DNA of 64,000 nt from a virus (taxonomy: Duplodnaviria > Caudoviricetes), in the IMG/VR virus record IMGVR_UViG_3300028591_000126, positions 1 through 64,000 of that record. One strand, 5' to 3'. The notes beneath the pieces are model-generated. The model saw only the letters and a program-made list of their open reading frames with translations. It was not told the DNA's origin and did no database searches. Below are positions 12,497-12,806 of this stretch, piece after piece; the stretch's first letter is position 1, and each line of letters opens with the position of its first letter. The translations under genes and the position numbers were made by a program.

Positions 12497-12611
12497 AAAA
12501 TAAAAAACGTAACTAATATAGCTACGTTGGGCAAAGGAGGAGGATAAAAACACATATATGAATGTTGCTATAACGTAGCTTATTTGTTAAGCTACTATTA
12601 TATTAAGCAAC
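12497..12611 (-). promoter_or_regulatory. Putative transcription attenuator in front of the tRNA array
   Basis: Mutually exclusive pairings: GTAGCTTA/TAAGCTAC, AGCTACGTT/AACGTAGCT, and terminator ACGTAGCTA-TAT-TAGTTACGT plus U-run. Confidence 0.7.
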
Positions 12612-12740
12612 TTAACTTCTATTTATTTTACAAATTCTTTCTTCATGATAACTTTTAGGCGCATCGAAAAAGCCTAGTACTAATGTACTTGGTTGATAAG
12701 AAATATTAATATTACATTGATTAATTATTAATGTTCTCAT
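12612..12740 (-). CDS. Putative leader peptide MRTLIINQCNINISYQPSTLVLGFFDAPKSYHEERICKINRS
   Basis: AGGAG RBS and 42 codons; stop codon abuts the attenuator hairpin; GCTAAATTA motif at 12768-12776. Confidence 0.65.
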   Translation of the reverse strand: MRTLIINQCNINISYQPSTLVLGFFDAPKSYHEERICKINRS

Positions 12741-12806
12741 TTTTTTGATCTCCTAAAAAATATCATTTAATTTAGCTAAAAAATTTTAGCTGTTTGTAAA
12801 ATTTTA

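Follow-up and report, generated by a model that had tools for sequence, protein, structure and literature searches.

The stretch of DNA examined here (the window) comprises 64,000 nucleotides (nt), positions 1 to 64,000 of the virus record IMGVR_UViG_3300028591_000126 (an uncultured phage; Duplodnaviria; Caudoviricetes), a 109.8-kb sequence that is estimated to be ~56% complete. Nearly all genes of the window lie on the minus strand, and so does the whole of the module described here, which consists of a 42-codon leader open reading frame (ORF), a series of RNA segments that can pair with one another in alternative ways and an intrinsic terminator. The module occupies the space between a gene for the ROOL RNA and an array of 26 transfer RNA (tRNA) genes, and coordinates that descend in the text follow the direction of transcription (Table 1). 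An initial annotation of this DNA had listed a promoter motif, a ribosome-binding site, the 42-codon ORF, RNA segments 1 to 4 and a terminator before tRNA-Ala as parts of a leader-peptide attenuator; all of these are present on the minus strand, and their coordinates were correct. ROOL was treated there as a separate finding, unlinked to the leader module. The present analysis adds a further RNA segment, designated 0, that contains the stop codon of the leader ORF and is complementary to segment 1, and on it the interpretation developed below depends.

Table 1. Features of the ROOL-leader-tRNA region of the window, in the order of transcription
Feature	Coordinates	Strand	Remarks
Early promoter in front of ROOL, TTTACA-N17-TATAAT	13456..13484	-	11/12 match; nearest upstream consensus promoter to the tRNA array
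ROOL RNA gene	12816..13436	-	Rfam RF03087, 253.2 bits against a gathering score of 99.1; model positions 1-574
AU palindrome, weak	12774..12791	-	
GCTAAATTA motif, candidate promoter of a second phage class	12768..12776	-	27 nt 5' of the leader ATG
Shine-Dalgarno (SD) sequence AGGAG	12750..12754	-	9 nt before the ATG at 12740; spacing like that of other genes of the phage
Leader ORF, 42 codons (MRTLIINQ...KINRS)	12612..12740	-	Stop codon UAA at 12614-12612; second in-frame UAA at 12605-12603
Segment 0 (GUUAAGUUGCU), 5' arm of helix 0:1	12606..12616	-	Holds the stop codon
Segment 1 (AGUAGCUUAAC), pairs with segment 0 or 2	12586..12596	-	Core 12595-12588
Segment 2 with outer 3' arm of hairpin 1:2	12564..12584	-	Core 12582-12572; partner is segment 1 (anti-antiterminator) or segment 3 (antiterminator)
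CCUCCUCC tract, within the pyrimidine tract between segments 2 and 3	12536..12543	-	Unpaired in both folds
Intrinsic terminator stem-loop (segments 3 and 4)	12506..12528	-	10 bp, loop of 3, -9.1 kcal/mol
U-run UUUUUUAUUUUAUCU	12493..12505	-	Abuts the 5' end of tRNA-Ala
tRNA array, 26 genes, tRNA-Ala(UGC) to tRNA-His	9751..12492	-	Neither promoter motif inside
Transfer-messenger RNA (tmRNA) and tRNA-Gln	9188..9685	-	Own early promoter at 9685-9657

The promoter motifs of the phage fall into two classes. (i) The early promoter (TTTACA-N17-TATAAT, in most cases with TGn or TTG ahead of the -10 element) occurs in 42 near-identical copies genome-wide, for example at window positions 13484, 9685, 15723, 24136 and 26757. 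At many of them the loop of a terminator hairpin encloses the -35 hexamer and the U-run serves as the spacer, such that a terminator and the next promoter overlap. (ii) The GCTAAATTA sequence, as which we take the promoter motif of the initial annotation, has 20 copies on the coding strand as compared with 1.4 expected, 13 of them 27-51 nt before the start of an ORF. These sites, which usually follow a T-run, include window positions 12776, 16419, 21571, 22144, 28601, 35412, 37483, 57345 and 60527, and PHROGs gave no timing class for the genes behind them. None of the genome's 42 early promoters lies between those of ROOL (13484) and tmRNA (9685), and no copy of GCTAAATTA occurs inside the tRNA array. 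Because the array contains no promoter motif of either class, transcription of 12492-9751 must cross the terminator at 12528-12493, and the distribution of these motifs supports the leader module as the sole entrance to the array. The module itself is probably driven by the ROOL promoter, and the tmRNA and tRNA-Gln genes are probably not under the control of the leader gate alone. A sigma-70-type promoter of the leader's own was rejected, since the sole match (9 of 12 positions) is at chance level and a TTTACA at 12800 has no -10 element.

Several properties of the leader ORF are those of a gene. Its codon-usage log-likelihood is 0.297 per codon, as compared with 0.49±0.20 for real in-frame gene windows, -0.24±0.29 for spurious small ORFs (6.8% of which score as high as the leader) and 0.02±0.13 for random stop-free ORFs (1.5%), and by the same measure frames 1 and 2 of the leader look non-coding. 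Translation of the ORF is judged likely because of this codon usage, the presence of an SD sequence, the spacing of that sequence and the fact that the frame is open in the one diverged relative of the peptide (designated P0002 and described below). No significant structure is predicted for the ORF proper (12760-12612; z score -1.3), and the peptide has no match in PHROGs or Pfam. The stop codon and the terminator are separated by a structured gap of 83 nt, the median for this phage being 10 nt. A second ORF within this region (MCFYPPPLP..., 12555-12475), in which CCUCCUCC would be read as Pro-Pro-Pro, was judged to be spurious; it lacks an SD sequence and runs into tRNA-Ala.

Five RNA segments surround and follow the stop codon. 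Segment 3 corresponds to 12528-12520 and segment 4 to 12515-12506; the U-run reaches 12495, and tRNA-Ala starts 3 nt further on, at 12492. Helix 0:1 comprises 11 bp and has a predicted energy of -10.8 kcal/mol (z score -3.5, 0 of 200 shuffles; p of 0.0035 for the duplex). Hairpin 1:2 spans 12611-12564, so that its first base is the base after the stop codon, as the initial annotation had observed, and has an energy of -16.3 kcal/mol (z score -4.6). The z score of the terminator 3:4 is also -4.6. The duplex 2:3 has an energy of -15.5 kcal/mol, and a perfect complement of 9 nt appears in 0.46% of dinucleotide shuffles. These helices combine into two mutually exclusive folds of the region 12615-12493, an antiterminated one with 0:1 and 2:3 (-26.5 kcal/mol) and a terminated one with 1:2 and 3:4 (-27.5 kcal/mol, z score -4.7), with a findpath barrier of ~20 kcal/mol between them. 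The antiterminated fold has a z score of -4.75, and its energy is reached by none of 500 shuffles. The two states are nearly equal in energy. The anti-SD-like sequence noted there between segments 2 and 3 is also present; it is the CCUCCUCC tract, of which there are three occurrences in 110 kb, both strands included.

The other terminators of the phage provide a natural control for the competing fold. In strength the leader terminator is ordinary, the median across 49 terminator-like sites of this phage being -9.7 kcal/mol. For 38 terminators of the genome, the terminated-fold energy was subtracted from the best fold energy available before the 3' arm exists. The leader terminator is a clear outlier in this set, with a gap of +1.4 kcal/mol and 9 of the 10 arm bases paired upstream, whereas the next-best gap is +4.2 kcal/mol, the median is ~+11 kcal/mol and the terminator of the S-adenosylmethionine (SAM) riboswitch in the same window has a gap of +7.3 kcal/mol. 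A genome-wide repeat of the hairpin motif was rejected because its counts are near expectation.

The order in which these helices can form was followed along the growing transcript. Up to a 3' end at 12567, no fold is predicted to be more stable than helix 0:1. Conversion of 0:1 into 1:2 has to overcome a barrier of ~14 kcal/mol, as compared with 4.6 kcal/mol for the addition of 2:3 to 0:1, and for 3' ends at 12519-12510 the minimum-energy fold is 2:3. From the stability of 0:1 and the difference between the barriers, an RNA without a ribosome should proceed from 0:1 to 2:3 and then to read-through. The effect of a ribosome was modelled by masking bases, and when 13-16 nt from the stop codon are masked, 1:2 and the terminator form again. 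Between the end of the ORF and the inner stem of segment 1 there are 19 nt, and the ORF does not reach that segment. The classical geometry of the trp leader was rejected on these grounds, because a ribosome at the stop codon masks 13-16 nt, by which neither the inner stem of 1:2 nor the terminator is disrupted. Since a ribosome inside the ORF cannot reach segment 1, helix 0:1 is needed to connect translation with the later folds. Once the P site of a ribosome is at codon ~37 or beyond, segment 0 would be covered.

A ribosome-coupled switch is the most economical reading of this arrangement because the deciding helix contains the stop codon of an ORF that is preceded by an SD sequence and has the codon usage of a gene. 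We tentatively propose that a ribosome-dependent transcription attenuator occupies the region between ROOL and the tRNA array, a reading that we prefer and that falls somewhat short of probable. Transcripts would begin at 13484, the early promoter of ROOL, and probably at GCTAAATTA (12776) as well, and helix 0:1 would be the first to form as the RNA is synthesized. If no ribosome has reached codon 37 or so, 0:1 would persist and segment 2 would be free to pair with segment 3 as it emerges; with 2:3 formed the terminator would be blocked and the polymerase would enter the tRNA genes. If a ribosome arrives at the end of the ORF in time, 0:1 would melt, 1:2 and then 3:4 would form, and transcription would stop in the U-run before tRNA-Ala. 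Rapid translation of the leader would keep expression of the array low, and slow or failing translation within the first ~36 codons, from any cause, would raise it. The proposed direction of control is that translation to the stop codon leads to termination and that absent or slow translation leads to read-through. The initial annotation held that the direction could not be read from the sequence; the energies of the folding path now allow one to be suggested. The alternative structures of the ribosome-coupled sensor put forward there stand, and the position as sole gate and the stop codon in the deciding helix support such a sensor, but the geometry of 1:2, 2:3 and 3:4 alone fails to respond to a ribosome in the ORF. 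We infer, beyond the folds themselves, that the ORF is translated, that the timing permits coupling and that the purpose is to match tRNA supply to the speed of translation. A more extended proposal appears doubtful to us, namely that the lag of ribosomes behind the polymerase on a 42-codon test gene sets nearly the whole tRNA complement, that supply is raised when anticodon nucleases or codon demand slow decoding, and that the ratio of ROOL to tRNAs is fixed but adjustable through their shared operon. The link to attack by host anticodon nucleases, which the initial annotation had offered as an example, is purely conjectural.

The amino acid operons of trpL, hisL, pheL, leuL, thrL and ilvL are controlled by leader-peptide attenuators. 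The module of the phage resembles such systems, of which pheL is an example (PMC3082878), in having an SD-led short ORF followed by mutually exclusive helices and then an intrinsic terminator, and in the predicted response, in which a ribosome at the end of the leader favours termination and one that is held back favours read-through; with the his leader it shares the presence of more than four segments. It differs in that there is no codon run, that the ORF ends before segment 1 and that the ribosome would act by melting a hairpin at the stop codon. It also differs in that a lack of translation is predicted to give read-through rather than super-attenuation, that the output is tRNAs and not biosynthetic enzymes, and that the module lies in a phage, downstream of ROOL. 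A second group of comparable systems are upstream ORFs that sense stalled ribosomes, represented by vmlR (PMC9226507) and mef(E)/mel (PMC4335068), which serve resistance in Gram-positive bacteria, and by toiL of E. coli (PMC12121999). In these, too, general difficulties in translation are signalled by a short upstream ORF through a terminator and antiterminator, and stalling raises read-through, but the ribosomes are stalled by drugs at particular positions and the genes controlled are for resistance or toxins, whereas here the output would be tRNA supply and there is no evident stalling motif. No attenuator before phage tRNA genes, and no sensor of translation speed controlling tRNA genes, is described in the literature searched (full text). 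Phage tRNA arrays are usually seen as constitutively expressed cargo. If the proposal is correct, a switch at the sole entrance to a 26-tRNA array would mean that the phage regulates its tRNA supply, and if the ribosome is the trigger, this supply would be tied to translation performance, which bears on codon mismatch and on host defences that cleave tRNAs. It would also provide the first concrete indication of the way in which expression of ROOL (a cage-forming RNA that is abundant and whose function is unknown) relates to that of the tRNAs, the two sharing one operon with an internal gate. The model predicts that mutants of the start codon or SD sequence would show increased read-through, the opposite of what applies to the trp leader.

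In the initial annotation the sensor was deduced in part from amino acid completeness, the peptide being said to contain 19 types, all but Trp, in agreement with 19 types served by the downstream tRNAs. The count for the peptide is confirmed, and it includes two Pro codons. Of ORFs with random composition, 1.0% cover 19 of the 20 types, as do 2.7% of the 42-residue windows taken from proteins of the phage itself and 3 of the 61 ORFs in the genome that have 38-46 codons, so that such coverage is unusual but not striking (p of 0.01-0.05) and makes a weak argument. The absence of Trp is expected because Trp is the rarest residue (0.8%). The count for the tRNAs did not hold, since the 27 tRNAs that ARAGORN and Rfam detect in the window serve 18 amino acids, Pro and Trp not among them, and there are no further tRNA calls elsewhere in the record. 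A nineteenth type is obtained only if a non-canonical, Pro(UGG)-like cloverleaf at 11480-11405 (minus strand) is counted, which has an acceptor stem, the anticodon loop UUUGGGA and a 3' ACCA but has the T loop GGUAGUA and a D loop without GG, and which neither program detects. Because an array that serves 18 or 19 of the 20 types will match almost any ORF, the completeness argument has little force, and the two Pro codons of the leader lack a canonical tRNA-Pro. The phage tRNAs can read 37 of the 42 leader codons as compared with 81% in the long ORFs of the phage (P of 0.17), and the leader samples 20 of the 26 anticodons (P of 0.03). It contains no codon run for a single amino acid and no enrichment of sensed codons. 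The structural part of the original interpretation is strengthened by these analyses, and the part based on amino acid completeness is not.

The initial annotation also included a tRNA-Trp(UCA) with a group I intron at 8590-8910; tRNA-like exon halves, separated by ~230 nt, are visible there by eye (minus strand), but the gene is called neither by ARAGORN, with introns allowed, nor by Rfam at its gathering score. The tRNA-Ala at the head of the array (12492-12414) is odd, with an Rfam score of just 24 bits. Within the array, an 86-nt gap (window 10819-10968, minus strand) contains an SD-led frame for a peptide rich in Cys and in Arg/Lys (MACMKRKCRCRKCRKFNKQFIC...).

Relatives of the leader are few. 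Identical copies of the peptide are present in a 1.2-kb metagenome contig (L002), an ENA contig and a Logan contig, and the one diverged relative, P0002, which is available as a protein sequence only, is encoded on a 6.8-kb contig of assembly GCA_024712465.1. P0002 has 41 residues that are 73% identical to the leader, its frame is open and its stop codon is one codon earlier; two of its differences fall in the first 29 residues and nine in the last 12. A word-indexed search of 5.8 billion proteins returned just the identical copies and P0002, with no longer forms of the peptide, and a HMMER profile run against 1.84 billion representative proteins returned P0002 and low-complexity noise only. 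Scans of viral, metagenome and genome contigs with back-translated motifs revealed no relative, a degenerate DNA pattern gave eight GC-rich matches in metagenomes, all unrelated, and none of 50,697 phage records was matched by P0002 in a tblastn search. The neighbouring 110-residue ORF matched itself only in a homologue search. A DUF2828 protein is encoded upstream of the peptide on the P0002 contig, and following this protein as a route to relatives led to distant phages only.

Two other contigs bear on the history of the locus. L002 (positions 1-1222) is 100% identical to 13459-12489 of the window over 971 nt, through the first four bases of tRNA-Ala, and beyond that point is unrelated, with different tRNA-like sequences that are not called by ARAGORN. 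Unless L002 is an assembly chimera, ROOL, the leader and the terminator appear to be transferred together, by mosaic exchange at the junction of terminator and tRNA. The second contig, L102, is a syntenic relative in which a flanking gene is 56% identical, the array starts with Ala-Thr and ends with tmRNA, and TTGTATAAT is present ~55 nt upstream of tRNA-Ala. From this comparison, the window looks like an L102-type array into which ROOL and the leader have been inserted between the promoter and the first tRNA. Upstream of the tRNA array of L102 (1000-4200) there is a gene for a 543-residue DUF2828-like protein with a vWA-type DGSGSM motif, preceded by an ORF-poor stretch of 1 kb and followed by tRNA-like half-molecules.

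The occurrence of ROOL near tRNAs in phages and prophages has been described previously (Weinberg et al. 2017, PMC5737381; Kretsch et al., bioRxiv 10.1101/2024.12.08.627333), and co-transcription of the two was suggested in the former. The window is like these published loci in having ROOL directly upstream of a same-strand phage tRNA island and differs from them in the leader ORF and terminator or switch located between ROOL and the tRNAs; the ROOL literature searched describes tRNA proximity and possible co-transcription only, with no terminator, leader ORF or switch. To compare the window with other loci, 91 ROOL-like loci were collected by a motif scan, 73 of which have at least 900 nt of downstream sequence. 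tRNAs follow ROOL in 37 of the 73, always on the same strand and never on the opposite one, and in most of these the first tRNA begins 0-60 nt past the end of ROOL. A blastn comparison of the leader and of ROOL with the 91 loci revealed no homologous leader and no close ROOL. In loci unrelated to the window (L051, L061/L078 and L033), a hairpin and U-run abut the first tRNA. In L061 and L078, ~165-400 nt after the ROOL motif, there are two strong hairpins, a short SD-led ORF and a terminator of 16-18 bp that lies 10 nt before the first tRNA, but the short ORF is frameshifted between the two. In L062 a 116-residue gene with its own terminator takes the position of the leader. A terminator between ROOL and the tRNAs is a recurrent feature, therefore, and a conserved leader peptide is not. 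Unlike many of the other ROOL loci, the window has no canonical terminator directly after ROOL.

Several of these observations, and some properties of the leader itself, weigh against the ribosome-dependent attenuator. The helices are rich in AU, and their energies were predicted by nearest-neighbour rules. In the predicted fold of 12815-12612 (z score -4.9) the SD sequence is partly buried in a helix with codons 26-32. RNA polymerase outruns ribosomes in Bacillus-type hosts, and in such a host read-through would be the permanent state. The differences of P0002 in the last 12 codons and in the position of the stop codon mean that segment 0 may not be conserved, and P0002 contains 17 amino acid types, so that the completeness of the leader is not kept in its only diverged relative. 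The near-invariance of the first 29 residues fits better with a functional peptide, or a constraint at the nucleotide level, than with a pure sensor. Other ROOL loci, such as L051, have a plain terminator before the first tRNA and no ORF, and the syntenic L102 lacks ROOL, the leader and a terminator before tRNA-Ala.

In a first alternative, the module would be an ordinary small-gene cassette (GCTAAATTA, SD sequence, 42-codon gene and terminator) that was inserted between ROOL and the array and whose terminator is a fixed, leaky stop. The terminator would end and stabilize an abundant ROOL/ORF transcript and pass a constant fraction of polymerases, and the 2:3 pairing would derive from a duplicated hairpin. 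Other genes of the phage have the same layout, the terminator is of typical strength, and the N-terminal 29 residues are conserved in P0002. A core, GUAGCU...UACGUU, is common to hairpins 1:2 and 3:4; the loops of the two hairpins are unrelated, however, and only the pairing arms have been kept. The plain hairpin and U-run at the first tRNA in L051, L061/L078 and L033, and the gene with terminator in L062, show comparable arrangements at the same position. A cassette of this kind leaves unexplained why the terminator is so extreme an outlier among 38 for its competing fold, why a third complementary copy (segment 0) lies over the stop codon, why no more than 1 kcal/mol separates the two folds and why a structured gap of 83 nt replaces the usual ~10 nt, and on balance we regard it as rather unlikely.

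A second alternative is a two-state RNA switch with a trigger other than the ribosome, such as a protein of the phage or its host, a tRNA, ROOL or a different RNA, temperature or polymerase speed, that would bind or melt segment 0 or 1, with the ORF being incidental or having a separate role. The bistable architecture itself is consistent with such a switch, the single-stranded CCUCCUCC between segments 2 and 3 and three AGCU-centred palindromes offer possible binding sites, the latter for a protein, and attenuation mediated by proteins or RNAs is common in Gram-positive bacteria, with rplJL as an example (PMC4538822). No candidate factor was found, however, and the leader matches neither the T-box nor any other Rfam family; a T-box leader in particular was rejected because there is no Rfam hit in 12493-12815 at E values up to 1 and no UGG in 12614-12493 that could pair with the 3' NCCA end of a tRNA. 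This explanation would make it mere coincidence that the stop codon of a well-initiated, gene-like ORF sits in the deciding helix, and we consider it quite unlikely. The least probable alternative, to which we give little weight, is that the ORF is untranslated and that the whole of 12815-12493 belongs to the ROOL transcript as a structured 3' extension or a processing module, with hairpins that protect the 3' end left after termination or after RNase P has cleaved at tRNA-Ala. It agrees with the folds of 12815-12612 and 12815-12493 (z score of the latter -5.3), in both of which the SD sequence is paired, with the absence of a canonical terminator directly after ROOL and with the frameshift that separates the short ORFs of the close relatives L061 and L078. 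It does not agree with the gene-like codon usage of frame 0 alone, with the lack of significant structure in the ORF proper, with the presence of a promoter-like motif of its own or with the open frame of P0002, which persists despite an inferred divergence of ~30% at the 3' end.

Two further features of the window lie outside the leader module. A stretch of 1.8 kb (13885-15688, minus strand) behind the consensus early promoter at 15723, which the initial annotation had noted as well, contains no ORF of at least 80 codons and has no Rfam match. A tetrahydrofolate (THF) riboswitch (71 bits, 2768-2861) and a SAM-I riboswitch (57 bits, 1366-1451), both on the minus strand, adjoin genes for a pyruvate-formate-lyase-like protein and for a protein with an ECF-transporter S-component domain, and their presence points to a Firmicutes-type host or to host-derived cargo.

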